This document shows, one piece after another, positions 47,986 to 63,540 of a stretch of DNA of 64,000 nt. This stretch comes from a virus (lineage: Duplodnaviria > Caudoviricetes): IMG/VR virus record IMGVR_UViG_3300045002_000015, positions 8,781 through 72,780 of that record; one strand, written 5' to 3'. The number at the start of each line of letters is the position of its first letter. Position 1 is the first letter of the stretch. The notes below the pieces were generated by a model. The model saw only the letters and a program-made list of their open reading frames with translations. It was not told the origin of the DNA and made no database searches. A program made the position numbers and the translations under genes.

Positions 47986-50900
47986 CGCCCGATCCCCCGC
48001 GACCGGTCCGCCCGCCGCTGCCGCCGGCTCGGCGCGGCGGCGCGCGGCGTGCGCTCCGGCGCGCGATCGCGCTCAATCGCCGCGGTCACCGCAGCGGTCG
48101 CCTGCCGGCGGACCACTTCGTGATCCACCGTGCGGCCTTCGGCATCCGCGCGCTCGATCCGGCTCCTGAACTCGAGTTCGATCACATCCGCCAGCATACC
48201 ATCGTAGCCCTTCCCATCCGCGATCTGGCGCGCCCAGGCCGCCGCCTGCGGATCAAGTTGCGGCGCCGACTCCCGCGTCATCGGCCGCTCCGCCGCGGCG
48301 TGGTCGTGGCGCTCGATCGCCGCCACCACCGCATCCGTCGCCCGTTCCCAGAGCGCATCGTGATCCGCTGTGCGGCCCGCCGCCCGCTCGGCTTCCAGCC
48401 GGCTGCGGAATTCGAGCTGCACCACATCGGCGAACATGCCTTCGTAGCCTTTGCCTTCGGCGATCTGGCGCGTCCACACCGCCACGCGAGGATCGATACG
48501 CGGCGCCTCCGGGCCGTCCCTAGCGGCCTCTGGAACAGCCGGGGTATGGGAAGGCGCCCCATGCCCACGCGGCCGCTGTGGCGCCCCTGGCGCCCGCGCG
48601 GCGCGGTCCCAGATCGCGCGCTTGGCCGCCACCGTCCCGCGCTTGACCACTTCGGCCATCCGCGTGAAGTCGGTCGCAAGCTGCTTCAGTTCCTGCCGCG
48701 CCAGATTGCGCGCCATATTGGTCACGATGAATTCCTGCACCGCCGCCCGCCGGGTGATCTGGTTGCGGGGATCGCCGATCGGCCGGCGCTCCTTGATCTC
48801 CTCGAGTTCCGCCCCCTGGCTGGTGATGATCCAGAACCGCCGCCGATGCCGCGATGCCGCAACATAGCCTTTCAGCCCGTTGACCGTCCGCGAGCCGTGC
48901 GGGTAGAGCGCCAGCGCCTCGGTCACGGTGTCGCCCTGGCGGCTGTCAATGGTCATGGCGTCGCCATAGGTCAACCTGATCCGCTCGCCGGTCTCGGGAA
49001 ACCTGAACTGGTCCCACGGCACCGAGGCAACCCGCCCCTTGGCCGTCCGCACCGTCAATCCATCGTCTCGGATCGCCGCCACCTCCACCACGCTGCCATT
49101 GTCGCCGATCCGGCCGATATTGCCCCGCCCGAACCTGCCATAGCCGCGGTTGAACAGTCGCACCCGGTCACCCACCGCGATCGGCAGCCGGTATTCGGTG
49201 CCATGCTGATCAACGGCATCGAGGACCTTGGCATCGCCGCCGATCTCGCCCCGCGACTGGCGGCGCTCCCGGATCGCCGCACCGATCGCCAGCACATCGG
49301 CGTTCGTCGGCACGCTGATCCCGAACCGGTAGCCCGGCTCGGCGGCATGCGCGCGCGTCCGCTCGTCCCAAAGCTCGACGGCGCGCTGGATCGCATCCCT
49401 ATGGTCGCCCGGCACCAGCAGAAGCGTCCCGTCAGCCGCCTTGTGCCGCAGCGCCTCAGCGATCGTCGCCTCGTCACCGGAGTGGAACTTGGCGACAAGC
49501 TCTGCCTCCTCGCGCCGCTGCCGGACGGTCTGCAACAGCGTCGGCAGCTTGCCGAGCACCACTTCGGCCAGCCGCAGTGAATTGCCCGCCTGAATCGGAT
49601 TGCCCTGAAGTTCATGGCCGATACCCACCAGCTTGAAGCCATGCGCATCGCGCAGCTTGGCCAGATCATTCATCATGGCTGTGCCGACCTGGGATAGCTC
49701 GTCGGCGATGACCACGGTGTTCTCGCCCACCGCGATCCTGCCGCGCGCGACGCCATAGGTGAACGCGGCAATCGCCTGCGAACGCTTGACGCCCGAGTCC
49801 TTGCCGGCATGCGCCTGCCGCCAGGGCACTGTCAGGTAAACGGTATCAAGCCCGCGCGCGTGCCACGCTTCCACAAGTGGGGTCAACACGGTCGTCTTGC
49901 CTACTCCAGCAGCGCCACGGCCGACCACGACGCCGCCCGCCTCGCCCAGCGCATGCGCCAGCCCGGCCTGCTCCGCCGTCAGCCTGATACCACTTTCGCG
50001 CGCGACTTTCTCGATCGCCTCGTCGATCTCCCGCGGTGTCAGCGCATGGCGCCTGTCGGTCGCGCCCTTTTTCAGCAAGGCCACGGTCTCCTGCTCCATC
50101 CGCAGGTGCTTTTCCGTGGTGAACCGCTGCCACAGGCTTTCGCCGTCGCGGCCCTCGCCGGGCGGCGCCGGCACCTTGCCCCACAACAGCGCAGTCCGCT
50201 CGCCATCCTGGGCAACGCCTTCGGTGCGGTACGCCTTGGTGAGCGCGGCAATATCGCGCCCCGGATCGTCGCTGATCCCGGCCTCGATCAGCCCTTCCGC
50301 AGCCGCGATGCGTGCCACCTCACCGCCGAAGACCGCGCGCCGGTCCAGTTCCGCCGCGAGTTGCGGCAGTGACCGCTCGAACGCCGCCCGCAAGCGCTCG
50401 CGCTGCCGCGCCAAGAACCGCTCCCGGCCGGGCCGTAGCACGCTGCGGTGGCGGTAACCCGCCGCCTCGGCCTGCCGGTTCCAGGCGTCGAATTGCGGCT
50501 GTTTGTCTTCCGAATGCTTCTCACGGGCGGCCGCAACAGACCGGTCAACCAGCCTGACCCGCTCCTCGACCGACAGCGTGTCCCAATCCAATCCTTGCTC
50601 GCGGGCAAAACCACGTGCCGCCTCATTGCCGTCCACCGTGCGCTTGCTGAACAACTCGACCGCCCAGCGCGGGATATCGCGCACCGCCGCCATCCGGGTC
50701 CGGTCCTCAAGGCCCGCATCAACGCCGTGCTCGCGCAGCCGACGCGCGAGAAACCCTTGATAAACCTTGCCGATCTCCTTGATCTGGCCATTCAGCCGCT
50801 TGCTGTCGATCGCGCCGACATGCCCGCTCTCGGTCATGACCACGTTCGGCGTGATGCAGTGCGTGTGCAGGTGCATATCGCCGATCTGGCCCACCGCCTT

Positions 50901-51470
50901 CAGGATCGTGTTGTCCCGGTCGGCGATCTTGGCGACTGGACGGGCGGTATATTCCTCGAACTTCCACCACATCATGTGGCCTTGTTCGGCGCCTTTGCTG
51001 CCGCCGCGCCCGCGCCGCGCCCAGCCCGTGGTTTGTTCGAGGTAGGCCATGCTGCGGTCGACGGCGTAGCGGTGCGCTTCGAGGAAAATCCCCCGCTCGC
51101 GCTCGGTGGGCGCAAACGCCCAGGCGATCGAGACCGACTTCGGCGCATTCAGCGTGAAATCGTAATAAGTGATCTTCCCCTTCGCTTCGCTCGCCCGCTG
51201 GTATTGCTTGCCCTCGATGCGATCGCCATCGGCGCGCAGACCGCGCACCACGTTGGCCAACTCGCCCTGGGTAATTGGCCGCGCGGTATCGACGCCGAGC
51301 CGTTCGGCCAGCGGTGCGTACGCCCCGTCGCGCGCCGTCCCTTGCACGGCCTTGCCGTAATAACCGGCCACCAGGTCGGCGACGGATGGCTCCTGCATGG
51401 CGACATAATATTTCGCGATCTCGCCAGCGGCGAAGCTCGTCGTGGCGACGCCATCGCGGAAGGTCAGCAC
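47982..51470 (-). CDS. MobF (TrwC-like) relaxase-helicase
   Basis: Start reassigned to GTG at 51470 (MLTFR, GAGG RBS); KYY/GYY, YDFTLNAPKSVSI, DMHLHTH, FSKRT; helicase GAAGVGKT, DE, QTVRQR, YGDAMTIDSRQG. Confidence 0.93.
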   Translation of the reverse strand: MLTFRDGVATTSFAAGEIAKYYVAMQEPSVADLVAGYYGKAVQGTARDGAYAPLAERLGVDTARPITQGELANVVRGLRADGDRIEGKQYQRASEAKGKITYYDFTLNAPKSVSIAWAFAPTERERGIFLEAHRYAVDRSMAYLEQTTGWARRGRGGSKGAEQGHMMWWKFEEYTARPVAKIADRDNTILKAVGQIGDMHLHTHCITPNVVMTESGHVGAIDSKRLNGQIKEIGKVYQGFLARRLREHGVDAGLEDRTRMAAVRDIPRWAVELFSKRTVDGNEAARGFAREQGLDWDTLSVEERVRLVDRSVAAAREKHSEDKQPQFDAWNRQAEAAGYRHRSVLRPGRERFLARQRERLRAAFERSLPQLAAELDRRAVFGGEVARIAAAEGLIEAGISDDPGRDIAALTKAYRTEGVAQDGERTALLWGKVPAPPGEGRDGESLWQRFTTEKHLRMEQETVALLKKGATDRRHALTPREIDEAIEKVARESGIRLTAEQAGLAHALGEAGGVVVGRGAAGVGKTTVLTPLVEAWHARGLDTVYLTVPWRQAHAGKDSGVKRSQAIAAFTYGVARGRIAVGENTVVIADELSQVGTAMMNDLAKLRDAHGFKLVGIGHELQGNPIQAGNSLRLAEVVLGKLPTLLQTVRQRREEAELVAKFHSGDEATIAEALRHKAADGTLLLVPGDHRDAIQRAVELWDERTRAHAAEPGYRFGISVPTNADVLAIGAAIRERRQSRGEIGGDAKVLDAVDQHGTEYRLPIAVGDRVRLFNRGYGRFGRGNIGRIGDNGSVVEVAAIRDDGLTVRTAKGRVASVPWDQFRFPETGERIRLTYGDAMTIDSRQGDTVTEALALYPHGSRTVNGLKGYVAASRHRRRFWIITSQGAELEEIKERRPIGDPRNQITRRAAVQEFIVTNMARNLARQELKQLATDFTRMAEVVKRGTVAAKRAIWDRAARAPGAPQRPRGHGAPSHTPAVPEAARDGPEAPRIDPRVAVWTRQIAEGKGYEGMFADVVQLEFRSRLEAERAAGRTADHDALWERATDAVVAAIERHDHAAAERPMTRESAPQLDPQAAAWARQIADGKGYDGMLADVIELEFRSRIERADAEGRTVDHEVVRRQATAAVTAAIERDRAPERTPRAAAPSRRQRRADRSRGIGR

Positions 51471-51544
51471 CGCTGCGCCTCGATGCCGGCCTCGGCGGGG
51501 TCCATTTCCGTACCCTAAAGCCCAGCGCGCGGCTTTTGCAACAG

Positions 51545-51568
51545 GCACCGTATGGTGCAATGGTCTGA
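51545..51568 (+). other. Putative oriT nic region
   Basis: GCACC-GTAT-GGTGC hairpin followed by AATGGTCT; resembles R388 GCACCGAAAGGTGCGTATTGTCT nic; lies between relaxase and divergent triplet. Confidence 0.7.
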
Positions 51569-51678
51569 TTTTGTGACCGCCGCCTGGAACCGGCAAAATA
51601 TCCGGGTTCACGGCACGCGGTGCGCAACCGAAGAACGCGGCTTGTGCAACCACGATTGCGTCTGATAGGATGTAACCA

Positions 51679-53336: not shown

Positions 53337-53501
53337 ATGACGGTTAATATTCCAGACGATCTCAGGAGTGCCGTGCATTTAGACGAGCCTGTCCCAGGCG
53401 GCACTGCATGGATCAGAAAATACCAGGACGGGAAGGCAAGCGAGCCAACGCCTCCTTTCATTACGGTTGCAATCCTCGCGAATACGTCCATCGCAAGATA
53501 G
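53337..53501 (+). CDS. Small hypothetical protein (54 aa)
   Basis: GAGGAGGAG RBS; below ORF-track cutoff. Confidence 0.45.
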   Translation: MTVNIPDDLRSAVHLDEPVPGGTAWIRKYQDGKASEPTPPFITVAILANTSIAR

Positions 53502-53558
53502 CACGATGTAGAGCCTCCGCCGCGTCTATTGTCGAGCTGACTACAACCAGCCACTCGG

Positions 53559-53792
53559 TCACGGTCCATTTGGAGGTGACGGCAGAGCCATCCAATGTGT
53601 TAGTTTCCAGTCGCAGTCTGAAAGACCTCCATGCTCGCTATTTCCTGACCATGCCGGCCCCGTTCCCTCCACCCAACAGAAGCGGCCGTTGAAGAACCCC
53701 ACGGTTGCCACGCACTCTCCATCGGTGGCTATAAGGACCGATCCATCTTTCGGGGCCGTCCCGATTGGCTGCCACCGGGGTTCGTCTGTCAT
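53559..53792 (-). CDS. DUF551-like phage protein
   Basis: WQPIGTAPKDG..THWMALPSPP. Confidence 0.8.
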   Translation of the reverse strand: MTDEPRWQPIGTAPKDGSVLIATDGECVATVGFFNGRFCWVEGTGPAWSGNSEHGGLSDCDWKLTHWMALPSPPNGP

Positions 53793-53902
53793 AGACCATT
53801 CTCCCAACTCAAGCCTTCTCCTCGCTCCAACGCTTCGCGCGCCCTTGTGGCGAACCAGGTCCGGTCAGGGTTGTCATTGTCATTGGTGGTTTTGTCGCTC
53901 AT
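53789..53902 (-). CDS. Cassette micro-ORF MSDKTT-NDNDNPDR (37 aa)
   Basis: Manual translation; overlaps both neighbours. Confidence 0.5.
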   Translation of the reverse strand: MSDKTTNDNDNPDRTWFATRAREALERGEGLSWENGL

Positions 53903-54084
53903 AGCGGCAGTCTCCGTCCATACAGCGCGCGCAAGAATTGGGACGCTGTCCTGCGCACCATTGCGTTGTCGTCCGCATCCTTGGGCTGGCCCATGATGCG
54001 CAGCAGCTCACGAACATAGCATTCGGCATGCCTCAATAACTCATCGTGGCCTGCAATAGCGGTCGTCTGGTTCTGATCAGCCAT
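53899..54084 (-). CDS. Cassette ORF MADQNQTT-AIAGH (cassette A, intact copy)
   Basis: Second copy at 57398-57572. Confidence 0.65.
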   Translation of the reverse strand: MADQNQTTAIAGHDELLRHAECYVRELLRIMGQPKDADDNAMVRRTASQFLRALYGRRLPL

Positions 54085-54298
54085 GATTTACCACTCCACA
54101 GTATCCTGCTTCCGGCCCGCGCCCCATACCGTCCATCGGCGTCCATGAAGGCAAGCACCGGGAGCACACCCAACCTTCTTCTGTTCCGTGCTCGCCGTAT
54201 TTGAACCAGCCGTAGGGGCCGCGCCCCAACCATCGACCACAAGCACAACGCGGGCGCATGATCGCCTCCCACCTGCGGGTCGTATTCCCCTTGCTCAT
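54077..54298 (-). CDS. Cassette ORF MSKGNTT-, Cys-rich
   Basis: CACG and CSRC pairs. Confidence 0.6.
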   Translation of the reverse strand: MSKGNTTRRWEAIMRPRCACGRWLGRGPYGWFKYGEHGTEEGWVCSRCLPSWTPMDGMGRGPEAGYCGVVNHG

Positions 54299-54606
54299 TG
54301 CCGACCTTCCACATGCGCTAAGAGGTCGCGTGCTTCTTGCATCAGTCGGGCCTCGTTTGCAGCGTGCCGCTCCTGGTGCCACGCGCCGCCAGGAAGTGCC
54401 ACGAAGCGCTTGACAAGGGAAAGTAGCTCCGGCGCAGCAGCAATCAGACGTGCAGTTCCAAGGTTGCCATCTGAGGCCATAAACGCGACGCGGTTGTCAG
54501 TCCCTGCGACGCAGACTTCGCTGGGGCTCCCGAGCTTGTCTCCCTGAAGCCATACGACTTCCCAGGGGCCGGGCAATGGGGTCGTTTGGGATTTACCGTC
54601 AGTCAC
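54295..54606 (-). CDS. Cassette ORF MTDGKSQTT-PLPGPW, phage hypothetical
   Basis: PGPW..ARLIAAAPELL motif typical of small phage proteins. Confidence 0.75.
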   Translation of the reverse strand: MTDGKSQTTPLPGPWEVVWLQGDKLGSPSEVCVAGTDNRVAFMASDGNLGTARLIAAAPELLSLVKRFVALPGGAWHQERHAANEARLMQEARDLLAHVEGRQ

Positions 54607-54802
54607 GTTTGCAGGCCTCCACCATTGAGGGAGCCATCACTACGTTGCGCATACGCTCGGCGATGCGCGCTGCTTCCTTGCTGCGCTCACGGGCTGGCAG
54701 ATACGCGATACCATCAACCGTGTGAGCCATGCGCACGACCCACGCACGGAGTGCAACTAGTTCTGACACCGCGTCTGGGGTCGTTTGGTTATAGTCAGCC
54801 AT
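54599..54802 (-). CDS. Cassette ORF MADYNQTT-
   Basis: Overlap-coupled ORF. Confidence 0.6.
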   Translation of the reverse strand: MADYNQTTPDAVSELVALRAWVVRMAHTVDGIAYLPARERSKEAARIAERMRNVVMAPSMVEACKRD

Positions 54803-54983
54803 GATCTACAATCCTCAACGAGCGTCGTAGGGCGCCGTCCATGACGCGCGAAAATCGAAGGTAATTCGGACACATCTCGGCACTGGTGCCCACGTAGCCT
54901 TGCAAGCAATCGGCGCGTTGTTCCATGCCACAGCCAGGGCATGGACTGGTCGTCTTGTCGTGCGGTTTCTGATGGTCACTCAT
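54795..54983 (-). CDS. Cassette ORF MSDHQKPHDKTT-, Cys-rich
   Basis: CPGC..C..C. Confidence 0.6.
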   Translation of the reverse strand: MSDHQKPHDKTTSPCPGCGMEQRADCLQGYVGTSAEMCPNYLRFSRVMDGALRRSLRIVDHG

Positions 54984-55284
54984 CAGCGAACATCCTGTAG
55001 CCGTTTGTGGGATGGCCGGCAGTGAACATGTCAGCAGACCGTTGAATGAAGGAGCGAGCTTCGTCCTCCGTCATCCACCCGGCATCGAAAGGCCCAGTGC
55101 CGAAGTCCTCTTCATAGGACCACTCAGGAGCGGCCACGATATCGTCGCCGCCGATATTCATGCGCCAGCTATCGTAGCGCGCCCGAAAGTAGAATGGTTT
55201 GCCATTTATGGTGCCCTCAGCCTGCACTGGGCAATTGCCACCTAACATCTGGATCACGACCTCGGCTGTCGTATCGTTAGTCAT
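54976..55284 (-). CDS. Cassette ORF MTNDTT-, hypothetical
   Basis: GGNCPVQAEGTINGKPFYFRARYDSW. Confidence 0.7.
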   Translation of the reverse strand: MTNDTTAEVVIQMLGGNCPVQAEGTINGKPFYFRARYDSWRMNIGGDDIVAAPEWSYEEDFGTGPFDAGWMTEDEARSFIQRSADMFTAGHPTNGYRMFADE

Positions 55285-55523
55285 CGGCTGATCTCCAATC
55301 GGGCCTGTCCAAAGCCGCAGCACTCGCACTGCCAGTAGAGCCATGCATCTGTCGGATCAGTAACTTCACACGTAGGGTGGGCCTCGATGCACGCGCCTTC
55401 CTCGAACCAGTCGAAGTAAATTGTTGAGACGCCACGATGCGCGCCGCTGATCTCGACCACGGAGCCGCGCACCGTCTGATAGCGCGCGGTCGTTTGGGAC
55501 GCGAGCTTCTGATCTGCACTCAT
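55281..55523 (-). CDS. Cassette ORF MSADQKLASQTT-
   Basis: Overlap-coupled; CECC near C-terminus. Confidence 0.6.
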   Translation of the reverse strand: MSADQKLASQTTARYQTVRGSVVEISGAHRGVSTIYFDWFEEGACIEAHPTCEVTDPTDAWLYWQCECCGFGQARLEISR

Positions 55524-55732
55524 GGGTCGCACCTCTTGCACAGGATCGGGACAGGTGCCCGATGCTCTTTGATATAATCAAACGGCTTTCGACACTGCTC
55601 GCATGAAGCACTTCCCCACGTCACGACTGGCGTTGAGCTTGTCCATGAAAACTGTCCGGGCAGAACGGCGGGGCTGAACACGACATTCCCCACGGTCGTC
55701 GGGTTATCGGCCATGGTCGTTTTGTCGCTCAT
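55520..55732 (-). CDS. Cassette ORF MSDKTT-MADNPTT-, Zn-ribbon-like
   Basis: Two tandem junctions; CEQC and CKRC. Confidence 0.6.
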   Translation of the reverse strand: MSDKTTMADNPTTVGNVVFSPAVLPGQFSWTSSTPVVTWGSASCEQCRKPFDYIKEHRAPVPILCKRCDP

Positions 55733-55998
55733 GCTGATTTTCCGCACTTGATTGTCTTTGCCTCTGGGTGATCGAACGCCATGTGGATTATGCTGCGCAG
55801 CTCACGTTTGATGGCATGATCCAGTTCGACGCCCTCGGTGTAGTCGATGTCGTCTCTCAGGTAGCCACCAAGGCTCAGCATACCGATCAGATCGGATGCC
55901 CAAACTGTCATCTGCTCGTCGTGACAGACAGCTTCGGCGGCAGCCTTCGGTCCGAGGATGACGGTCGTCTGGGAACTGTGCGGTTGATCGTCACTCAT
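55729..55998 (-). CDS. Cassette ORF MSDDQPHSSQTT-
   Basis: Overlap-coupled ORF. Confidence 0.6.
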   Translation of the reverse strand: MSDDQPHSSQTTVILGPKAAAEAVCHDEQMTVWASDLIGMLSLGGYLRDDIDYTEGVELDHAIKRELRSIIHMAFDHPEAKTIKCGKSA

Positions 55999-56173
55999 CG
56001 CTATCGTCTCCATCGTCCAGGCGCCCGCTGCCGCCACACTCGGGGCACTCGCCAGTAGAGCCGCAGAAGTCGCACCCCTCACCATCGCACGCTGGGCATT
56101 CACCAGTCTCAACGCACATAGGACACCGGCCGTCGAAGGCGGCCTCGTAATCCGGCCGCTTGCGCTCAGACAT
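55991..56173 (-). CDS. DnaJ-like Cys-rich zinc-finger miniprotein
   Basis: CPMC..CPACDG..CDFCG..CPECGG. Confidence 0.65.
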   Translation of the reverse strand: MSERKRPDYEAAFDGRCPMCVETGECPACDGEGCDFCGSTGECPECGGSGRLDDGDDSDE

Positions 56174-56246
56174 AGCCGAGGCCCTCGCATGTTGGGCATT
56201 TGGTGATGGTAATGGCGTGGTTGGTCTGAGGGACGTCATTGGCCAT
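56166..56246 (-). CDS. Cassette micro-ORF MANDVPQTN- (26 aa)
   Basis: CPTCEGLG; variant junction. Confidence 0.4.
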   Translation of the reverse strand: MANDVPQTNHAITITKCPTCEGLGYV

Positions 56247-56577
56247 TTGCAAGCTCCCGCACCTTGGCGTTGATAACTTCGCACATGGCGAAGCCGATTG
56301 ATTCAGCTTCACGAATGCGGCCACGAGAATAGGAGCCCTGCTTACCCTCTAAGTCGGTGTCAGCAACGTGTCGCAGAATTTCATCGTCGGCTGTCGCGGC
56401 GCACAGTTCCACAATCTCGTCGCGCACCCAACGCAGGAGATCGATAGCTTGCTGATTGGGTAAGTCGGACACGATCTTAGCTCGAGGTATGTCAATCTCT
56501 GTCAGTGTCGCAGTCACTACTATAACTGACCGGTCAGGGTTGTCATTGTCATTGGCCGTCTGGGAATTGTCATCCAT
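56236..56577 (-). CDS. Cassette ORF MDDNSQTA-NDNDNPDR
   Basis: Shares 26 bp with 53861-53886. Confidence 0.6.
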   Translation of the reverse strand: MDDNSQTANDNDNPDRSVIVVTATLTEIDIPRAKIVSDLPNQQAIDLLRWVRDEIVELCAATADDEILRHVADTDLEGKQGSYSRGRIREAESIGFAMCEVINAKVRELANGQ

Positions 56578-56776
56578 GATTTATCACTCTCCTAGTCCAG
56601 GCAATTGTCGCGGCCACCATGGCTGTGCAATAGAGAAAAGCAAAGAAGCAGACCGCATAAGTCAGCGGCCAACACGGGTAAGCGATGAGCGAGGCCATTG
56701 ACGCGATGATTCCGATACCAGAGCCGATACACACGACGGTCGCATTGTACTCTGTAGCGGTCGTTTTGTCGCTCAT
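56570..56776 (-). CDS. Cassette ORF MSDKTT-, 2-TM membrane protein
   Basis: Two hydrophobic segments. Confidence 0.6.
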   Translation of the reverse strand: MSDKTTATEYNATVVCIGSGIGIIASMASLIAYPCWPLTYAVCFFAFLYCTAMVAATIAWTRRVINHG

Positions 56777-56922
56777 GGTTCATCGTCCTCTATCACTCTA
56801 CGGCAGTGCGGGCAGCGGTCTCCGACCAAATCCGGATCACCTTCCCATCCGCAGCTTTCACAGACCCATGAGCCGCCCTTATGCTCCCAAGGGTCAGGCG
56901 CCTCGGTCGTTTCATCCTTCAT
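56773..56922 (-). CDS. Cassette ORF MKDETT-EAPDPW, Zn-ribbon (cassette B copy 1)
   Basis: CESC and CPHC; second copy at 57252-57403. Confidence 0.65.
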   Translation of the reverse strand: MKDETTEAPDPWEHKGGSWVCESCGWEGDPDLVGDRCPHCRRVIEDDEP

Positions 56923-57118
56923 CTGGTTGATTCTCCCTATTCCATTCCTCAATGGTCTTTGCCTCATTGAAGTAGGCGTGATGGCGCTTATCAATGATGT
57001 CGCGAACACGGTCGGCGAATGGATTGTCCCTGGCGTCCTCAGCAAAGAATGTCGCGTCAAAGATTTCTCGCACGGTTTCCTTCCACGCTGACTCGACAGT
57101 CGTTTTGTTCTCAGACAT
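56912..57118 (-). CDS. Cassette ORF MSENKTT-
   Basis: Overlap-coupled ORF. Confidence 0.6.
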   Translation of the reverse strand: MSENKTTVESAWKETVREIFDATFFAEDARDNPFADRVRDIIDKRHHAYFNEAKTIEEWNRENQPDEG

Positions 57119-57269
57119 CCTGAAGCCCCTTCAACCTATTCGCCTTTACCTCACACGCATGCGCTTCCGCCGAAGCAACGAGCGCTTGCTGACGTAACTG
57201 CACAGCGCGTTCGTAAAGGTAATCAGCGTAGTCTCGCCGTAGGTCAGCTTCGGTCGTCTTGTCGCTCAT
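57111..57269 (-). CDS. Cassette ORF MSDKTT-EADLRR (52 aa)
   Basis: Manual translation; helical. Confidence 0.55.
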   Translation of the reverse strand: MSDKTTEADLRRDYADYLYERAVQLRQQALVASAEAHACEVKANRLKGLQDV

Positions 57270-57415
57270 GGTTCATCGTCCTCTATCTCTCTGTGACAGC
57301 ACGGGCAGCGGTCTCCGACCAAATCCGGATCACCTTCCCATCCGCAGCTTTCACAGACCCATGAGCCGCCCTTATGCTCCCAAGGGTCAGGCGCCTCGGT
57401 GGTTTTGTCGCTCAT
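57266..57415 (-). CDS. Cassette ORF MSDKTT-EAPDPW, Zn-ribbon (cassette B copy 2)
   Basis: Same body as 56773-56922 with a different leader. Confidence 0.65.
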   Translation of the reverse strand: MSDKTTEAPDPWEHKGGSWVCESCGWEGDPDLVGDRCPCCHREIEDDEP

Positions 57416-57587
57416 AGCGGCAGTCTCCGTCCATACAGCGCGCGCAAGAATTGGGACGCTGTCCTGCGCACCACTGCGTTGTCGTCCGCATCCTTGGGCT
57501 GGCCCATGATGCGTAGCATATCGCGAACGTAGTCTTCGGCGTGCCTCAATAATGGCCTGCAATAGCGGTCGTTTGCTCGTCGCTCAC
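57412..57587 (-). pseudogene. Frameshifted copy of cassette A (MSDEQTT-AIAGH, 7-bp deletion)
   Basis: CGATGAG missing relative to 53899-54084, giving an early TGA. Confidence 0.7.
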
Positions 57588-57778
57588 TTGATTCTCCCAC
57601 ATCGCATGCAGCGTTCCTCGTATGGGTTGATCTGTTCCCAATCGTGGCCACCGAAGTCTTCTGCGCACAATCGCTCTCGTGTAGCCTGTCGCATCCCGAA
57701 GCCCGTGAAATGTCGCGGCAGGTTCTGTTGGTACTGATGGATGATCGCAGGTCCGGTGGTTGAGTCCTGGTTAGCCAT
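57584..57778 (-). CDS. Cassette ORF MANQDSTT-
   Basis: C..GHDW..CMRCG. Confidence 0.6.
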   Translation of the reverse strand: MANQDSTTGPAIIHQYQQNLPRHFTGFGMRQATRERLCAEDFGGHDWEQINPYEERCMRCGRIK

Positions 57779-57956
57779 GATTTGCAATCTCCCTGATCTT
57801 GGCCTCCGCTCGAATGAGCGCATTCCACTGCGCCTTGGTCCCGCAGGTTTGCCTCCTCCATTCGCTGAAGTCGCGGGCATTTCCGTCCGTCATCTGGCTA
57901 ATAGCTTCCAGAGCAGCTTGCGCCTCATCCCGCGTAAGTGTCGTTTTCTCGCTCAC
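57771..57956 (-). CDS. Cassette ORF MSEKTT-
   Basis: Helical; overlap-coupled. Confidence 0.6.
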   Translation of the reverse strand: MSEKTTLTRDEAQAALEAISQMTDGNARDFSEWRRQTCGTKAQWNALIRAEAKIREIANHG

Positions 57957-58135
57957 GACATGATCCTCCTAAGTGCGGCTTCGGCCCTCTTCAGACACTC
58001 ACACTCAGCGCCGCATCGACAGGGATCGGGGCATCTGCGGTTCTTGGCTATCTGATCGCGAGCCGATAAGACCCAGCCAATTTCCTCCGCAGTGAAAGCG
58101 GTCGTTCGGTTGCTGCGGTCCTGATGGTCACTCAT
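57953..58135 (-). CDS. Cassette ORF MSDHQDRSNRTT-, Cys cluster
   Basis: CPDPCRCGAECEC. Confidence 0.6.
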   Translation of the reverse strand: MSDHQDRSNRTTAFTAEEIGWVLSARDQIAKNRRCPDPCRCGAECECLKRAEAALRRIMS

Positions 58136-58304
58136 GGTATTTGCTCCACCTCCAATCCGCATATTCTATGTCGGCTGCCGTTGGTTCCCTGCACTCCCAG
58201 ACCGGCATCAATCGGTAAAGTTCCCACACCACAAACATACTGCGGTGTGTGGCTAGAGTGATATGAGACGGGAAATCGTCAGCGGTCGTTTTGTGATCAG
58301 TCAT
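58128..58304 (-). CDS. Cassette ORF MTDHKTT-
   Basis: Overlap-coupled ORF. Confidence 0.55.
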   Translation of the reverse strand: MTDHKTTADDFPSHITLATHRSMFVVWELYRLMPVWECREPTAADIEYADWRWSKYHE

Positions 58305-58491
58305 TCGGATATTCCTCTCTGGCTTCCAGAGCCTCATCGTCCATTCTGTCCTGCAAGCGAGCCAACGCCTCGTGCATCCGTCGTGATGCCTCGCGCTGCT
58401 GGTAAGTCATGCCGTCCCTCTCGATTGCCTGAAGCATCTCAGCCAATTCGCAAAGAGCCTCATCTCGCAGTGTCGTCTCAGCTTTGCTCAT
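58297..58491 (-). CDS. Cassette ORF MSKAETT- (first of array)
   Basis: Start overlaps end of the resolvase-fold gene. Confidence 0.6.
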   Translation of the reverse strand: MSKAETTLRDEALCELAEMLQAIERDGMTYQQREASRRMHEALARLQDRMDDEALEAREEYPND

Positions 58492-59152
58492 TCTGAATCT
58501 CCTTTCGTTTGGCTCTCGCCCGCTTCATTCCAGCCCTATGGGCGATTGCCCATCGTCTAGTGGGTAAGTGCTCTCTAGCTGTCTTCCAGGCCATCGGCTG
58601 CCAGTGGCCACGCTTGGTCTTACGGCCAGCACGGTGCAACAGTTCCTGCAACGTGAACTTGGGGTTTCCCCAGTCCTTCTCAATCAGCTTCACACGGCGC
58701 TTGGTATCGGCCAGCTTCTGTTCGGCAGTAACCTCCCAGCCGGCCCGGCCGGGCTGAACGGCGCCGCGCCGCTTGTCGGCCACGAAGTCTTCCTGGGCTT
58801 GCGCAATTTCGTCGGCACCAGCATCCGGTCCGATCTTCAGGCCGGTATTCAGTGCCACCAGCGTAGCGCCCCGGGCCTTCGCGGCAGCAAGGCAGCGCCC
58901 CAGGTCGCGCAGGTCGAACGCCAGCAGCCCCCAGCAGGCAAAGCGGATCGTCTCATCCCTCGACTGGCGGCCTGTTTGCGCCATCATCTTTCCGCGCCAA
59001 TAAAGCGCCGCAGCGTCCTTCCGCTTACGCTCACCCGGCCTTAGCTCATCCTGGTACTCGGCCTTGGCTTTGCCAGCGGCATCAAGCAACTCCCGCTGGG
59101 CCTCCCAGGTCCAGACCTTGAGGATATTGCTGAGATAGTTGATCTCGGGCAC
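58478..59152 (-). CDS. Divergent serine-recombinase (resolvase)-fold protein with basic C-terminal DNA-binding region
   Basis: Resolvase-like layout (NY..AQRELL..EYQD..R..DETIRFACWGLLAFDLRDL..KARGATLVALNTG); canonical YxRxS and DRLGR not conserved. Confidence 0.6.
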   Translation of the reverse strand: MPEINYLSNILKVWTWEAQRELLDAAGKAKAEYQDELRPGERKRKDAAALYWRGKMMAQTGRQSRDETIRFACWGLLAFDLRDLGRCLAAAKARGATLVALNTGLKIGPDAGADEIAQAQEDFVADKRRGAVQPGRAGWEVTAEQKLADTKRRVKLIEKDWGNPKFTLQELLHRAGRKTKRGHWQPMAWKTAREHLPTRRWAIAHRAGMKRARAKRKEIQNEQS

Positions 59153-59185
59153 TGTGAAAATCTGCTCCGGTCGGCGCTTTTCTGA

Positions 59186-59215
59186 TTGACAAGGTAGCAG
59201 CCTGGGGCATATAAA
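59186..59215 (+). promoter_or_regulatory. Strong sigma70-like promoter facing the right-hand array
   Basis: TTGACA (59186)-N18-TATAAA (59210). Confidence 0.75.
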
Positions 59216-59225
59216 TCAAGCACCA

Positions 59226-59450
59226 ATGACGGACAAGCGAGTGAAACCCCTAGCCCTGGAGGCTCCTATGGCTTCTACTTCCTCTCTTCTCTCCGTCTCT
59301 TTCGCTGACGCCAACGGCGTCTGGTCCGTCTCTCGCTACTTCAACACCATCCGCGCCGCCCGTCGGTGGGCGAAGTGGCTCAGCGGCCATTCTTATGTTC
59401 GTGAGGTGGCGATCCATCGAGGCGGCCAAGGAGGCGAGCGGGTCTCCTGA
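59226..59450 (+). CDS. Small hypothetical protein (likely start 59268)
   Basis: GGAGG RBS before MASTSS. Confidence 0.6.
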   Translation: MTDKRVKPLALEAPMASTSSLLSVSFADANGVWSVSRYFNTIRAARRWAKWLSGHSYVREVAIHRGGQGGERVS

Positions 59451-59497
59451 CCCGCTTTATCTGACAAACGATCAAACCCCTGTATCGGAGGAAACCT

Positions 59498-59683
59498 ATG
59501 AGCGAAGCATTCACACGCAACGATCTGATCGGTCTAGCCGAGTTGTTCAGGCTTGCCGTCCAGACCAATCCTCACGTCATCCCAGGTGTTGTGCCGGTGG
59601 CTCTGTCGCCCGATGACTGCGTGAGGATCGCAGACATTCTCACTGCTGAGATTGAGCGCCGTTGGATGGCGGTCGAGGCGTAG
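59498..59683 (+). CDS. Small hypothetical protein
   Basis: GGAGG RBS after junction. Confidence 0.65.
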   Translation: MSEAFTRNDLIGLAELFRLAVQTNPHVIPGVVPVALSPDDCVRIADILTAEIERRWMAVEA

Positions 59684-59712
59684 GTAGAAAACCCCTGTAT
59701 CGGAGCGGAGCT

Positions 59713-60021
59713 ATGGCCGAAGCTAGCGATCTCTTACGGCGCGTACAAGAGAAGAAAGCAGCGCTGACTGTCGTGACAGACCCCAAGGCCGGCGAGCAGT
59801 GGGGCGAGATGTCGTGGCCTGGCGTATTAGACCAGCCAGCCAGAACTGGACGGCAGATGCTTGAATTCGTGGCGCAGCAATATGGTAAGGTTGGGTGGGA
59901 GATAGGCGACCTCAAGGCGTTCTGGGACGCGTCTCCAACCGGAGAATTGTCCCACGTGTTCGAGTCGTATCAAACGGCATGTATGATCTACGAAGCAGAG
60001 CGTGAGTTGGAAAGCCACTAA
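59713..60021 (+). CDS. Hypothetical protein
   Basis: GGAG RBS after junction; ends TAAACCCC. Confidence 0.65.
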   Translation: MAEASDLLRRVQEKKAALTVVTDPKAGEQWGEMSWPGVLDQPARTGRQMLEFVAQQYGKVGWEIGDLKAFWDASPTGELSHVFESYQTACMIYEAERELESH

Positions 60022-60043
60022 ACCCCGATCTAGGGACGCGAAG

Positions 60044-60256
60044 ATGGTACGGAGCATTGTGATGAGCGGACTGGGGATCACAGTAGGAGCGCATGCCTCG
60101 GAAAGGCGTTCCGCGCAGTTCCTCGCAGAGCTTGAGGAAGTTGAGGGCATGACGCCTGGGCAGCTTCGCGTCGAGTGCCAGAAGATGGCCAAACAAGGCG
60201 GCTTCTCCGGCATGGTCGCGACGTTCGCGCTGGACCGCTACGACAACAAGCGCTGA
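60044..60256 (+). CDS. Small hypothetical protein
   Basis: Bounded by junctions at 60020 and 60256. Confidence 0.55.
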   Translation: MVRSIVMSGLGITVGAHASERRSAQFLAELEEVEGMTPGQLRVECQKMAKQGGFSGMVATFALDRYDNKR

Positions 60257-60264
60257 AACCCCCG

Positions 60265-60504
60265 ATGAGTCCTGAGCGCCTACGCGAGCTGATTGCGATG
60301 ACCGGCCTAGAGCGGCGGGAACTTGCCCGCCTGCTCGGCTATGGCTCCGACAACAGCCTACGCCAGTGCGAGCGAGGGAAGGCGACGCTTCCAGCCGACA
60401 AAGCGAAGTGGCTGGAGGGCTACGCTAAGCTGCGCGCAAGGCATGCGGAACAGATCGCCAAGTGGCTCCAGAAAAATCCGCCGCCCAGCGAAAATAACGG
60501 TTGA
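60265..60504 (+). CDS. XRE-like HTH protein
   Basis: LERRELARLLGYGSDNSLRQCERGKATLP; similar to 14944-15240. Confidence 0.75.
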   Translation: MSPERLRELIAMTGLERRELARLLGYGSDNSLRQCERGKATLPADKAKWLEGYAKLRARHAEQIAKWLQKNPPPSENNG

Positions 60505-60531
60505 CTTCTATGCGCGATGCGCGCATATACT
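60501..60531 (+). promoter_or_regulatory. Internal promoter with palindromic operator
   Basis: TTGACT..TATACT flanking TATGCGC-N5-GCGCATA. Confidence 0.6.
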
Positions 60532-60555
60532 AGGGGCATCAAGACGGAGACGGAC

Positions 60556-60810
60556 ATGGCTATCAATCTTCCGAAGTGGACGGACTGCACCACAGAGCAG
60601 CACATTCGTGCTGGCGCATATCGCGCTGCGGCTGAGCGGCTCGCCATGCTGCACCGGGAATACGTCAGTGCATGCGAGCGTTGGCAGACCGAATGCGCGG
60701 CAGATGGAATCGATCCAGAGCTTGAGCGCGATTACTATGAAATCGATAAGCTGGCTATGCGAAGGAACGCCGCAGAAGCGAACGCAATCGGCTTCGCCAG
60801 CGCTTACTAA
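60556..60810 (+). CDS. Hypothetical helical protein
   Basis: GGAG RBS; ends TAAACCCC. Confidence 0.65.
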   Translation: MAINLPKWTDCTTEQHIRAGAYRAAAERLAMLHREYVSACERWQTECAADGIDPELERDYYEIDKLAMRRNAAEANAIGFASAY

Positions 60811-60852
60811 ACCCCAGTTACCTTCCGGCGCCTCGCGGATCAGGGGCGGAGA

Positions 60853-61110
60853 ATGGAGATGACGAACCATCCGAACCGAAAGAAACCGGTACCTCCTGCG
60901 GTTAAGCGTTACATGCAGGAGTTTGGAGAGACGGAGGCCGATTTCAGGAAATGGTTGGGTATTCAAAGGGATGCCCACAAAGCCATTGCCGACTGCTCTG
61001 ACGCCAATGGTAACCGAATAGGGCTTGTGACATGGGTTGCATACAAAATGGGATGTTCGGCCGCAGCCGCAAAGAGCGCACTAGCATGGGCCGGAATCAT
61101 CGAGACATAA
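60853..61110 (+). CDS. Hypothetical protein with TNHPNR N-terminus
   Basis: Ends TAACCCCC. Confidence 0.65.
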   Translation: MEMTNHPNRKKPVPPAVKRYMQEFGETEADFRKWLGIQRDAHKAIADCSDANGNRIGLVTWVAYKMGCSAAAAKSALAWAGIIET

Positions 61111-61131
61111 CCCCCGAAAGGAAGCCCTCAG

Positions 61132-61392
61132 ATGACCTACGTAGTTCGCGAGATCGAAACCGGGTTCATCATCGTCGGATCACAGGGCGCGCTACTACGC
61201 GATGGTGGTGCTGGCATGAACGGTGAACCGCTGGTCTGGCGTGAGCGCGCTAGGGCAGAGGCCAAGGCTGAGTGGATGAACCGCGTAGTTGCATCGGCCT
61301 TGATGACTAGATCAGAGCGTAGAACACTGCGGAACGAGATCGCCACGAAACATGGCATAAGTGCCGACACTGCACGTGGCCTTCTGAACTGA
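61132..61392 (+). CDS. Hypothetical protein
   Basis: AAGGA RBS after junction. Confidence 0.65.
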   Translation: MTYVVREIETGFIIVGSQGALLRDGGAGMNGEPLVWRERARAEAKAEWMNRVVASALMTRSERRTLRNEIATKHGISADTARGLLN

Positions 61393-61418
61393 CATAAACC
61401 CGATCTTGGAGAAAAGCC

Positions 61419-61598
61419 ATGTGCGGCCCAAGCATCACCCAACTCCTCGCCCGCGAAGGCATCACGCACGAGCGAGATTCCTGGACTGCCAAGGACCATT
61501 GCCACCGCCTTTACGCCAACGGCGAATACATCGGACGCTACGATGCCGCTCAGGCCGTCAAGTTTCTCGAAGCGTTGACCCACGAGAAGCTAACATAA
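61419..61598 (+). CDS. Small hypothetical protein (59 aa)
   Basis: Manual translation MCGPSITQLL..; GGAG RBS; ends TAACCCC. Confidence 0.6.
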   Translation: MCGPSITQLLAREGITHERDSWTAKDHCHRLYANGEYIGRYDAAQAVKFLEALTHEKLT

Positions 61599-61612
61599 CC
61601 CCGGAGAACGAC

Positions 61613-61816
61613 GTGCATCACATCGCCAAGCAGGACGACAAGCTCTACATCTACTCGATGGGCAAACGCCTTCGGGTTACCGCCGTTTTCTCTGACGATG
61701 AATCGGCCAACGCACACATGGCGCGCCATTCCGACGATGCGGTGATCGCCTGCTTTGGCCAGTTCGTATTCCTGGCTAATAAGTATGACCACGGCGAACG
61801 CGCCGCAGTGTCCTGA
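61613..61816 (+). CDS. Small hypothetical protein
   Basis: GGAG RBS plus GTG right after junction. Confidence 0.6.
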   Translation: MHHIAKQDDKLYIYSMGKRLRVTAVFSDDESANAHMARHSDDAVIACFGQFVFLANKYDHGERAAVS

Positions 61817-61838
61817 ACCCCAGTCTAGGAACCCAACA

Positions 61839-62039
61839 ATGACTTTGGATGAAAAGTTTGGCGAGAAGTCTGGTATGACAAAAGAACGGAGATACGAACA
61901 AGTACTGAAGCAAATCGCGGAGGGCAGTGATGCTGTGCCGGCACATGCCTGGAGGTACTTGGCGCACACCACGCTGGGTGAGTTCGGCGTTTCCTCCGAG
62001 TACCGAGAGGATGAGCGCCACCCATGGCCCGAAGACTAA
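61839..62039 (+). CDS. Small hypothetical protein
   Basis: AGGA RBS; ends TAAAACCCC. Confidence 0.6.
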   Translation: MTLDEKFGEKSGMTKERRYEQVLKQIAEGSDAVPAHAWRYLAHTTLGEFGVSSEYREDERHPWPED

Positions 62040-62203
62040 AACCCCGTCCAGCTTACACATACTGCATCTACGAGAAGTCTGAGACCGACTATCGCGTGAT
62101 GCACGGCAACAAGATCGTCAGCCGACACAGCACCGAACAAGAGGCCCGTGCCGCGCTTAAACGCGATTTTTTCAAAGAAACACTAAACCCCGGAGTAGAC
62201 TGA
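62024..62203 (+). CDS. Small hypothetical protein (59 aa) spanning two junctions
   Basis: MARRLKP-RPAYTYCIYEK..ETLNP-GVD. Confidence 0.5.
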   Translation: MARRLKPRPAYTYCIYEKSETDYRVMHGNKIVSRHSTEQEARAALKRDFFKETLNPGVD

Positions 62204-62454
62204 TGCAGTACGAGCAAACAGCGCGCCGGATGAGTGCGATGGACATTCACCCCAGCCTACGCATCACAGACACAGGTCCGGCGATCGGCACCTATCGAGG
62301 CAGGAAGATTGCCGAGTGGATCGACAGGGCCGGCGAGCGGTTCCTGTATGATCGTCCAGCGGTGGAAGATGCTGACGGTGGCGTGCCGCTGTCACAACTC
62401 AGGTCGGACGAGTTCGTGGTCGCTCCCGGCCTGATCTATCGACGTGCGACATAA
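62203..62454 (+). CDS. Hypothetical protein
   Basis: GGAG RBS; ends TAACCCCC. Confidence 0.65.
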   Translation: MQYEQTARRMSAMDIHPSLRITDTGPAIGTYRGRKIAEWIDRAGERFLYDRPAVEDADGGVPLSQLRSDEFVVAPGLIYRRAT

Positions 62455-62474
62455 CCCCCGAAAGGACCTATGCC

Positions 62475-62687
62475 ATGACCGTCACGATCGAGATAATCGG
62501 TCCTCGCGATGAGATCGTTGAGATGGGCCACTTTATATCGGACGCTATAGGGCTCAACATGGATCGGGCGCGGCGCCCTAGACCTCTACTGCGCCGTCTG
62601 ATTGATTCATGGAAGCCTGATGTCTTAGCGTACCCCATGATCGGCAGCGAGGGTCACGGCGCGGCGTTCAAGTACCGGAGCAAATAA
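62475..62687 (+). CDS. Small hypothetical protein
   Basis: AAGGA RBS; ends TAAACCCCC. Confidence 0.6.
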   Translation: MTVTIEIIGPRDEIVEMGHFISDAIGLNMDRARRPRPLLRRLIDSWKPDVLAYPMIGSEGHGAAFKYRSK

Positions 62688-62705
62688 ACCCCCGAGAGGA
62701 AGGAT

Positions 62706-62888
62706 ATGTTAGCTTATGTGATTCTAATGTGCCTCGGCGGTAGCCAGTGCATTCCGTTCCCTATATCGTTCCAGGATTTGGCAACGTGTCAGGCTAATGT
62801 CAGCTACTTGAATGGCTCGGCGCTCAGTCAGGCAGTGACCTCTCGTTGTGAACCGTGGAGCCTCGTTCCTTCGGACAAGAAGTCCTAA
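62706..62888 (+). CDS. Small exported Cys-containing protein
   Basis: Hydrophobic N-terminus, four Cys. Confidence 0.6.
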   Translation: MLAYVILMCLGGSQCIPFPISFQDLATCQANVSYLNGSALSQAVTSRCEPWSLVPSDKKS

Positions 62889-62911
62889 ATCCCCGGATAA
62901 AAAGGTCGCCT

Positions 62912-63037
62912 ATGCGTGATCCATTCCAGCAGTTCGTCACTTTTGGCCTTCCTGCAAGAAATGGGCGCGCGATCTGGATCACGCCAAGGCAGCGTTTGCG
63001 TATCACTGCCACAATGACCCAGCCTGGAAAGCGTTAG
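62912..63037 (+). CDS. Micro-ORF (41 aa)
   Basis: AAGG RBS after junction. Confidence 0.4.
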   Translation: MRDPFQQFVTFGLPARNGRAIWITPRQRLRITATMTQPGKR

Positions 63038-63074
63038 GCGAAGCCGAAATCAATAGAAGGATCGACGTGCTAAC

Positions 63075-63323: not shown

Positions 63324-63357
63324 GACGAAACCCCACTCAAGGGAGGCCATTACACCC

Positions 63358-63540
63358 ATGCTGACTGACGAAGAAATTGATCTGCTAAGAAAGCGAGCAG
63401 AAAAGGCGGTGAAGTCAAAGTGGCAAGTTCATGTGGATGCCGATGACTTGCTTGACTTAATTTGGCTGGCACAAGGCGGCGATGCCTACAACAGTCTAGC
63501 GCCCTACCACGGCTGTCCGATTGCGCAACGAGTCCGATAA
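63358..63540 (+). CDS. Small hypothetical protein
   Basis: GGGAGG RBS after junction. Confidence 0.55.
   Translation: MLTDEEIDLLRKRAEKAVKSKWQVHVDADDLLDLIWLAQGGDAYNSLAPYHGCPIAQRVR

Follow-up and report, generated by a model that had tools for sequence, protein, structure and literature searches.

Mobile elements need rapid change of their small accessory and counter-defence genes, and the described routes of cassette exchange are integrons and the PeSL cassettes of T4-type phages. The locus considered here is an array of small minus-strand genes at positions 53559-58491 of a window of 64,000 nucleotides (the whole stretch of DNA analysed, taken from the virus record IMGVR_UViG_3300045002_000015). 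The array is hypervariable: at a short coding motif its gene bodies are exchanged in frame as cassettes, both inside an element and between related elements. The published systems closest to it in logic are PeSL shuffling (PMC2839356) and integrons.

In T4-type phages, the small orphan genes of hyperplastic regions are shuffled, lost and gained at short conserved junctions, the PeSLs, which are intergenic modules of promoter and terminator (stem-loop) (Arbiol et al. 2010, PMC2839356). As in these phages, recombination between junction repeats of the array results in insertions, deletions and replacements of small open reading frames (ORFs), and close relatives differ mainly at the junctions. 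Unlike the PeSLs, the junctions of the array have no promoters or terminators above chance, and their core of about 8 nt is coding, fixed in frame and part of one translationally coupled operon. The array also resembles the cassette arrays of integrons (IntI, attI, attC), being formed of small genes, mostly unrelated, that share one orientation and have no promoters of their own, beside a conserved gene of a recombinase family, with order and content that vary between close relatives and exchange at a short conserved junction. However, it has neither a tyrosine integrase nor attC hairpins, and the product of the adjacent gene has a serine-recombinase fold without the canonical active site. The junction is located inside the reading frame, 4-11 codons past the start, and the unit carries the ribosome-binding site (RBS), ATG and leader of the next gene.

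Shufflons and multiple-inversion systems (Rci/sfx; Gin, Cin, Min), as well as the vsa-type switches of Mycoplasma, use in-frame sites that join a constant 5' part to alternative 3' parts. Shufflon-type sites are inverted repeats of 19-34 bp, and inversion switches the C-terminal part of one expressed gene. The array likewise has its recombination site in frame inside the coding sequence, but it consists of units that each have a stop and a restart, its motifs are direct repeats, and the outcome is reordering, loss and gain of whole genes. A short conserved sequence at the starts of many unrelated small genes is a further likeness, shared with two other cases. The start-associated sequences of Cluster K mycobacteriophages, reportedly described by Pope and co-workers in 2011, are said to precede the start codon; they are not reported to serve as points of exchange. 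The capsid-targeting leader of the T4 internal proteins is a peptide cleaved from proteins of the head. Neither case involves an in-frame crossover motif of 8 nt. The initial annotation had stated that no described system was like this array, which is too strong, as PeSL shuffling in T4-type phages and the in-frame shufflon sites share parts of it. None of the compared systems, nevertheless, has both stop/restart coupling and an in-frame junction that is an 8-nt direct repeat.

Organization of the array

The array comprises 23 intact minus-strand ORFs (37-113 aa) and one frameshifted paralogue (about 57412-57602). They are chained by stop/start overlaps (ATGA or ATGGCTGA), so that each start is on or just before the preceding stop. 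The initial annotation had counted 25 overlapping ORFs; the coupled minus-strand chain was found as described, but the count was not. The hexamer positions and counts it gave were all verified. A Thr-Thr pair is present at codons 4-11 in 21 of the 23 intact ORFs, in agreement with its "nearly all"; g12 has Thr-Ala instead (ACGGCC, a one-base variant) and g24 is without the motif. The tally is 15 ACGACC (13 in first leaders, one as the second motif of g15 and one in the pseudogene), three ACCACC, three ACGACA and one ACGACT, with variants ACCACG at 56220 and ACGGCC at 56554. All 24 motifs are on one strand and are direct repeats. The features are listed below; L155 is a related metagenome contig described in the next section, and the leader is the N-terminal peptide ending in the motif.

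58478-59152, minus: hub (head gene), 224 aa, resolvase fold; its stop overlaps the ATG of g1
58297-58491, minus: g1, leader MSKAETT; ACGACA at 58471-58476; body also behind MWENQVSDEQTT (P0137; L155)
58128-58304, minus: g2, leader MTDHKTT; ACGACC at 58284-58289
57953-58135, minus: g3, leader MSDHQDRSNRTT; hexamer 58100-58105; precisely deleted in run X10
57771-57956, minus: g4, GTG start, leader VSEKTT; ACGACA at 57939-57944
57584-57778, minus: g5, leader MANQDSTT; ACCACC at 57755-57760; body also behind MSDHQKPHDKTT (P0143, L155)
57412-57602, minus: g6-psi, frameshifted copy of g22, 91% identical to 53885-54069; leader MWENQVSDEQTT; hexamer 57567-57572; a short deletion is visible 3' of the motif
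57266-57415, minus: g7, zinc-ribbon body, paralogue of g10; leader MSDKTT; ACCACC at 57398-57403
57111-57269, minus: g8, leader MSDKTT; hexamer 57252-57257; in L155 the body is behind MVDQTGMPQTT
56912-57118, minus: g9, leader MSENKTT; ACGACT at 57098-57103; body also behind MTDNPTT and MNDRPTPVKTT
56773-56922, minus: g10, zinc-ribbon body; leader MKDETT; hexamer 56905-56910
56570-56776, minus: g11, small hydrophobic protein; leader MSDKTT (MSENQTT in the variant P0148); hexamer 56759-56764
56236-56577, minus: g12, leader MDDNSQTA; variant ACGGCC at 56554-56559; 26 nt 3' of the motif identical to g23
55991-56239, minus: g13, leader MTSLRPTT; variant ACCACG at 56220-56225
55729-55998, minus: g14, leader MSDDQPHSSQTT; hexamer 55963-55968
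55520-55732, minus: g15, tandem leaders MSDKTT-MADNPTT; hexamers 55715-55720 and 55694-55699
55281-55523, minus: g16, leader MSADQKLASQTT; hexamer 55488-55493; body also behind MADYNQTT (P0150, L155)
54976-55284, minus: g17, body of the GGNCPVQ family, 102 aa; leader MTNDTT; ACGACA at 55267-55272
54795-54983, minus: g18, leader MSDHQKPHDKTT; hexamer 54948-54953
54599-54802, minus: g19, leader MADYNQTT; hexamer 54779-54784
54295-54606, minus: g20, GTG start, leader VTDGKSQTT; hexamer 54580-54585; a phrog_1273 match begins at residue 11
54077-54298, minus: g21, leader MSKGNTT; hexamer 54278-54283
53899-54084, minus: g22, leader MADQNQTT; hexamer 54061-54066
53789-53902, minus: g23, 37 aa; leader MSDKTT; ACCACC at 53885-53890
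53559-53792, minus: g24, DUF551 protein (Pfam), no Thr-Thr leader; moves with g22-g23 (one block in L155)
53513-53558, minus: distal array end, 46 nt; in L155 the start of a further small gene, truncated in the window

The bodies behind the leaders are mostly unrelated, as had been noted: self-comparison of the array gives only two body-scale repeats (the paralogue pairs g7/g10 and g22/g6-psi), and the few family matches are each to a different family. Pfam and PHROGs scans of the cassette proteins named only DUF551 and families of unknown function and recognised no anti-defence gene. The two leaders of g15 (55694-55732) are 21 nt apart, an arrangement resembling a cassette body lost between the hexamer and the following ATG.

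Rearranged relatives and breakpoints

The comparison data are all metagenome assemblies. In these and in the array itself, 41 of 48 block ends or joints were found within 6 nt of a hexamer, whereas 9% would be expected by chance. Neither a fixed gene order nor breakpoints generally off the hexamer was seen; L155 and contigs from four sequencing runs are reordered. L155 is a 26-kb contig of another JGI metagenome, the backbone of which (TrwC and a ParA-like gene) is 96.2% identical to that of the window over 4.8 kb. Its cassette order is g17, g5, g1, methyltransferase (MTase), g18, g16, X, g22-g24, g19, X, g8, X, g9, X, where X denotes cassettes absent from the window. This order is completely different from that of the window, and 15 of 18 block ends are within 6 nt of the hexamer. 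Four L155 cassettes are 99.4-99.7% identical to those of the window, which exceeds the identity of the backbone (p = 2e-11); recent exchange between the elements is therefore indicated.

Four runs of soil or rhizosphere (three samples, three studies) gave Logan contigs with further rearrangements; two of these runs are from a sample that may be the one the window came from. In these contigs, 55487 is joined to 54779, 57754 to 54948, 58471 to 57568, and 58473 to either 56763 or 57102. The joint of 57939 to 58101 is a precise deletion of the single 161-nt cassette g3, hexamer to hexamer. Of the 18 joint ends in these contigs, 16 are within 2 nt of a hexamer, and the two sides share only 0-10 letters. 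Logan assembly uses words of 31 letters, and overlaps of 0-10 letters should not yield chimeras. Inside the array there are three repeats with 12 ends, 10 of them no more than 3 nt from a hexamer; an identity of 26 nt that ends inside two bodies (g12/g23) is the exception. Phage and plasmid collections searched by blastn with the array gave no match.

It might be supposed that nothing moves here, the array being a paralogous family with a shared N-terminus and the rearrangements being assembly artefacts. Paralogues do occur (g7/g10; g22/g6-psi), and assembled metagenomes are the only material for comparison, but the bodies are otherwise unrelated and only two repeats are of body scale. Moreover, a JGI assembly, ENA and the Logan contigs of several studies independently show rearranged forms, the joints have only the short overlaps given above, and leaderless homologues of array proteins exist. 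This explanation is largely refuted and hardly deserves further credence.

Exchange unit and crossover point

The exchange unit is the body of gene n with the stop/start and the leader of gene n+1, as had been proposed. Seven leader families remain with the upstream body while the downstream body changes, with about one exception, and in 90% protein clusters, identical bodies (g1, g5, g16 and g17) stand behind different leaders. For g1 these are MSKAETT or MWENQVSDEQTT, for g5 MANQDSTT or MSDHQKPHDKTT, and for g16 MSADQKLASQTT or MADYNQTT; g17 has MTNDTT, MSDEKTT or a fusion ending in ..GLTT.

Position 3 of the hexamer, the third base of the first threonine codon, tracks the upstream leader, and the ACC variant of one leader precedes three bodies. 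The last base usually tracks the downstream body (g1, g9, g4; one exception), which would be expected under any model. The crossover probably lies between hexamer positions 3 and 6, a placement compatible with a fixed exchange point.

Two candidate crossovers were rejected. An integron-type crossover inside AAC would make position 3 of the hexamer track the downstream body, and the opposite was observed. A link between the nic core of TrwC (GGTCT) and the complement of the motif (GGTCGT) involves only 4 common nt and implies cleavage outside the crossover bounds.

The junction motif

The junction motif is a DNA-level signal with the consensus A-R-ACG-ACC, because ACG-ACC is strongly preferred in it though the other threonine codons of the same genes are used evenly. 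ACG is the first codon in 18 of 22 motifs (p = 6e-9) and ACC the second in 16 of 22 (p = 7e-7), so that free use of synonymous codons is not seen; outside the leaders, the counts are ACA 20, ACT 16, ACG 16 and ACC 13 (19, 13, 13 and 13 by a stricter count). Only one other Thr-Thr dipeptide exists across all 23 array proteins. The anticipated enrichment over the rest of the element was also found, the minus strand carrying 15 ACGACC in the 4.9 kb of the array versus 12 in the other 59 kb (about 15 times denser; Poisson p = 3e-13). The codon preceding the motif has A at position 2 in 19 of 22 cases, a figure that held on recount, while encoding K, Q, E, N, D, R, S or P. It favours AAA, CAA and GAA, whereas the bodies favour AAG, CAG and GAG (pooled Fisher p = 1e-4).

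In a sequence logo built from 47 leaders (the window plus seven further loci), the information is confined to the 8 nt A-R-ACG-ACC, the flanks being uninformative. The reading frame of the motif is identical in 47 of 47 leaders, and its distance to the ATG is 12-30 nt. Among 25 independent leaders of other contigs, ACG comes first in 19 and ACC second in 17. The leader MSDKTT, searched as an 18-mer in IMG/VR (17 hits) and GTDB genomes (at least 120), gave only single chance N-termini and no arrays, and in the plus-strand neighbour array (about 18 genes, ORF list read by eye) no Thr-Thr was found in the first 12 codons.

The absence of attC from the array stood up to an inverted-repeat scan and to folding. 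In the 5.1-kb array, one inverted repeat of at least 12 nt was found, away from the junctions, with no attC-like hairpin at any junction. RNA folding of 21 start regions gave no common or consistent pairing partner for the motif, and Rfam gave no matches at E up to 1. Promoters and terminators scanned for in the array were not above shuffled controls, and none was at a junction.

The motif could also be read as an mRNA expression element near the RBS, such as a regulator site (perhaps for the hub protein), a small RNA site or a translation enhancer, with recombination as a by-product. As the sole sequence common to all the genes, it would be the place where rare short-homology or microhomology events land, and selection would remove the rest. 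Such a role would suit the fact that in both divergent arrays the motif is oriented with transcription, the plus-strand one having its own A/C-rich T[AG]A(A)ACCCC, but it does not suit the distance to the ATG, which varies over 12-30 nt, nor the failure to find a consistent pairing partner or an Rfam match. The leaders are A/C-rich and favour A-ending codons, unlike the bodies; yet an RNA site that had arisen independently in each gene would not require one frame in 47 of 47 motifs. The hub gene, the L155 MTase gene and the DUF551 gene, which are larger genes of the same operons, are without the motif, and the motif is therefore not needed for expression. The expression reading accommodates a hub that appears catalytically dead while keeping its C-terminal helical domain, the shuffling of L155 without a hub in cis and some imprecise junctions. 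However, it leaves aside that crossovers seldom occur at the longer shared leader starts, for example ATGAGCGAC of the MSD... leaders, and that the motif differs between hub lineages. The PeSLs provide a precedent for regulatory sequences doubling as recombination substrates (PMC2839356). On balance, this alternative is rather unlikely.

The leader as an add-on

The body of g17 has 519 homologues, and most of the 120 examined are leaderless, starting at the conserved core that corresponds to the start of the array body. In the array g17 and a few close relatives, x(3-9)-T-T stands in place of the initial Met only, with variants that have the MSDEKTT leader or an in-frame fusion ending in ..GLTT. 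In the phages with g17 homologues (L023, L024 and L149), the neighbouring genes are without Thr-Thr leaders; therefore the leader is specific to the element and not to the protein family.

A leader that replaces only the Met of leaderless homologues would also be expected of a removable tag. It might be supposed that x-Thr-Thr closes a short N-terminal peptide which is either cleaved off or directs the protein to export, packaging or degradation, and that the DNA is conserved through the spread of the leader by recombination and gene conversion. The cleaved capsid-targeting leader of the T4 internal proteins offers a parallel, though the array probably belongs to a conjugative leading region and not to a phage head module. 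A natural in-frame fusion of a 43-aa domain to the g17 body via ..GLTT would agree with a tag as well; yet the amino acid ahead of Thr-Thr differs in charge from leader to leader (K, Q, E, D, N, R, P, S), while the second base of its codon remains A and the third a purine, usually A. Lineages independent of one another have the silent positions fixed, distant arrays carry T-A instead of T-T, and we know of no protease or secretion signal that reads such an x-Thr-Thr motif. A protein-level tag is thus improbable.

The fusion protein P0154 (ENA contig, 182 aa) has a 43-aa zinc-ribbon N-terminal part that ends in ..GLTT and runs in frame into the g17 body without a stop or restart. Its C-terminal part is likewise different.

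The resolvase-like hub protein

The hub gene at the head of the array encodes a member of a family of at least 226 clusters, with proteins of about 215 aa and no Pfam model. In its AlphaFold model (pLDDT 78), residues 1-130 match the fold of gamma-delta resolvase (2gm5_C, Z 13.4, rmsd 2.5 A over 109 residues). The top 27 rows of the fold search are all serine recombinases or related entries, with Z clearly exceeding that of unrelated folds. The hub alone gave no Pfam, PHROGs or PDB sequence match; a profile of 50 hub-family sequences matches Tn3 and gamma-delta resolvase (E 7.5e-4), and Pfam Resolvase weakly matches 9 of the 50 members.

The hub shares with the small serine recombinases (Tn3, gamma-delta resolvase, Hin, Gin) the fold, profile homology, a similar length and a C-terminal helical domain, which it keeps, and its gene, like tnpR, is located at a divergent promoter region. 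Unlike them, it has Y-L-S-N-I for Y-x-R-x-S and A-V-L-A-W for D-R-L-G-R. The family N-terminus is conserved as Y-L-S-N-I-S-P-x-W-P, so that Y6-L-S8-N9 takes the place of Y-x-R-x-S, with no arginine two residues before a serine. In the family consensus, HMMER aligns A-s-l-a-v-L-a-w with K-K-L-D-R-L-G-R, and the conserved residues include S8, D35, R53 and D83. Judged from these alignments, the hub appears to be a resolvase derivative without the canonical active site. No res-like site of at least 28 bp with dyad symmetry is present.

The hub has 14 close homologues (58-76% identity). In all eight hub-family loci with downstream sequence (the window, L152, L153, L154, L156, L157, L158 and L159), the hub is followed by a leader-bearing array of small genes, usually stop/start-coupled, with T-T or T-A leaders. 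The gene content is nearly all different between these loci. The zinc-ribbon body (the homologue of g7) is the only one common to the arrays of the window and L154. In L154 it occupies the first place after the hub, with nucleotide homology beginning within the hexamer. The motif varies with the lineage; L158 has ACCACC and L159 has AC(N)-GCY (Thr-Ala), although the samples are small. A search for related loci with the hub gave none in viral contigs and only two short loci in metagenome contigs.

At the array head of L155, in the place of the hub, there is a T5orf172/MUG113 (GIY-YIG-related) nuclease-like gene (L155:1997-2603), preceded by a perfect TTGACA-N17-TATAAT promoter ending 7 nt before an ATG. 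In L158, the hub-like gene is directly followed by a gene (L158:6635-7192) with an N-terminal motif similar to that of the L155 gene by eye only.

Proposed mechanism and its significance

The preferred explanation is that the motif itself is the crossover signal and is hence kept even at silent positions; its probability is put at about 0.6. A cassette spans from one in-frame 8-nt motif (A-R-ACG-ACC, x-Thr-Thr) to the next; it comprises body n with its stop, then the overlapping Shine-Dalgarno sequence with the ATG, and lastly the leader of 4-11 codons of gene n+1. Because crossovers fall at the motif, the new neighbour is in frame and translationally coupled. The same had been claimed for any insertion at a junction. 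A factor would recognise the motif, and the best candidate for site recognition or synapsis would be the resolvase-derived hub protein. The DNA chemistry may come from other functions of the element or the host, because the hub is without the canonical catalytic arginines.

Strand exchange could be either a motif-directed recombination or a short-homology recombination. Favouring a motif-directed process are the conservation of silent sites across lineages, the motif variants specific to hub lineages, the near-exclusive use of the motif despite longer leader homologies and the constant resolvase-like neighbour. Several observations weigh against the motif as crossover signal. No recombinase has been identified for the array, the hub having A-V-L-A-W and no Y-x-R-x-S, and L155 has near-identical cassettes with no hub at the array head. 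To our knowledge, a site of about 8 nt without dyad or hairpin matches no known recombination site. A minority of junctions is imprecise, with fillers of 8 nt and 19 nt, the 26-nt stretch ending within two bodies and ends at the ATG. The crossover bounds come from few informative cases and are partly expected under plain microhomology, and the function proposed below for the array is suggested by position only.

As a tentative extension, the array might be a dedicated site-specific cassette-exchange platform of serine-recombinase ancestry. The hub, alone or with a partner nuclease, would then recognise, besides the 8-nt in-frame core sites, those with T[AG]A(A)ACCCC in the divergent array, with exchange of cassettes at a central dinucleotide. 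Such a platform would mean an integron-like renewal of early or anti-defence genes in conjugative elements and phages, without attC and always translationally coupled.

If the motif is recognised by an enzyme, a new recombination system and a function for the resolvase-like family would follow; if short homology alone is at work, 8 conserved nucleotides suffice to organise modular evolution. Each cassette donates the RBS, start codon and first codons to its downstream neighbour, and the joined body is expressed without signals of its own. With its cassettes found in other orders in related soil elements, the array is a natural plug-in system for small genes. It is also a defined and easily testable substrate (motif, array and candidate protein) and a natural design for standardised, translationally coupled gene stacking.

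Element context and the divergent array

The surroundings of the array include the following features.

1-21000: phage genes (portal with fused pyrophosphatase domain, large terminase, ParB-MTase, VapE, Prim-Pol)
30-43 kb: genes of a type IV secretion system (VirB4, VirB9-like, VirD4)
47982-51653, minus: TrwC relaxase gene
51546-51567, plus strand: hairpin GCACC-GTAT-GGTGC (GCACC-N4-GGTGC) followed by AATGGTCT, just upstream of the TrwC gene start
59226-64000, plus: divergent array with T[AG]A(A)ACCCC fused to each stop, then a Shine-Dalgarno sequence and start

The hairpin and AATGGTCT are presumably similar to the nic region of R388, and the site is taken as a candidate oriT. This candidate would set the polarity of transfer; the array would be on the leading side of a TrwC-type oriT, with the transferred strand as its template. 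Both arrays (53500-64000) have 55-59% GC versus 64-71% in the remainder of the record, and the related hub loci have 56-63%. No Phage_integrase domain was found in the flanking ORFs scanned (hub, ParA-like, TrwC and others).

Anti-defence islands in the leading regions of plasmids consist of small, mostly uncharacterised genes next to oriT, which enter the recipient first (Samuel et al. 2024, PMC11541004). The array would similarly be located on the oriT leading side and oriented for transcription from the transferred strand. However, no junction motif or cassette exchange is described in that study (PMC11541004), and no known anti-defence gene was recognised in the array. MTase and single-stranded DNA-binding protein genes are present in related arrays. 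The array probably supplies early establishment or anti-defence proteins, with shuffling renewing the repertoire.

The hub and array of L153 adjoin tail-fibre genes. Taken with the phage genes in the present record, this places the module in both conjugative and phage contexts. The same record thus has phage genes (1-21000) together with the conjugation set VirB4, VirB9-like, VirD4 and TrwC (30000-52000). It could represent a hybrid element, a pair of neighbouring elements or an assembly chimera.

The T[AG]A(A)ACCCC motif of the divergent array is retained in relatives (the divergent sides of L152, L153 and L154). The plus-strand cassette at 59663-60027 is 97% identical to a block of L155 (1346-1707) that ends at this motif. 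The plus-strand array is therefore probably shuffled too, as far as this match indicates.

The junction motif also occurs on three short metagenome contigs, on 6 of 6 genes of L150, 3 of 5 genes of L028 (with one AGGACC variant) and 2 genes of L026. In the last of these, a contig with 66% GC, the two Thr-Thr-leader genes (L026:400-1100) are located between a gene resembling an ABC-transporter ATPase and a gene with an N-terminus resembling iron-type alcohol dehydrogenase, the start of which they overlap. L026 may be a mini-array within a chromosomal operon, or an assembly chimera.

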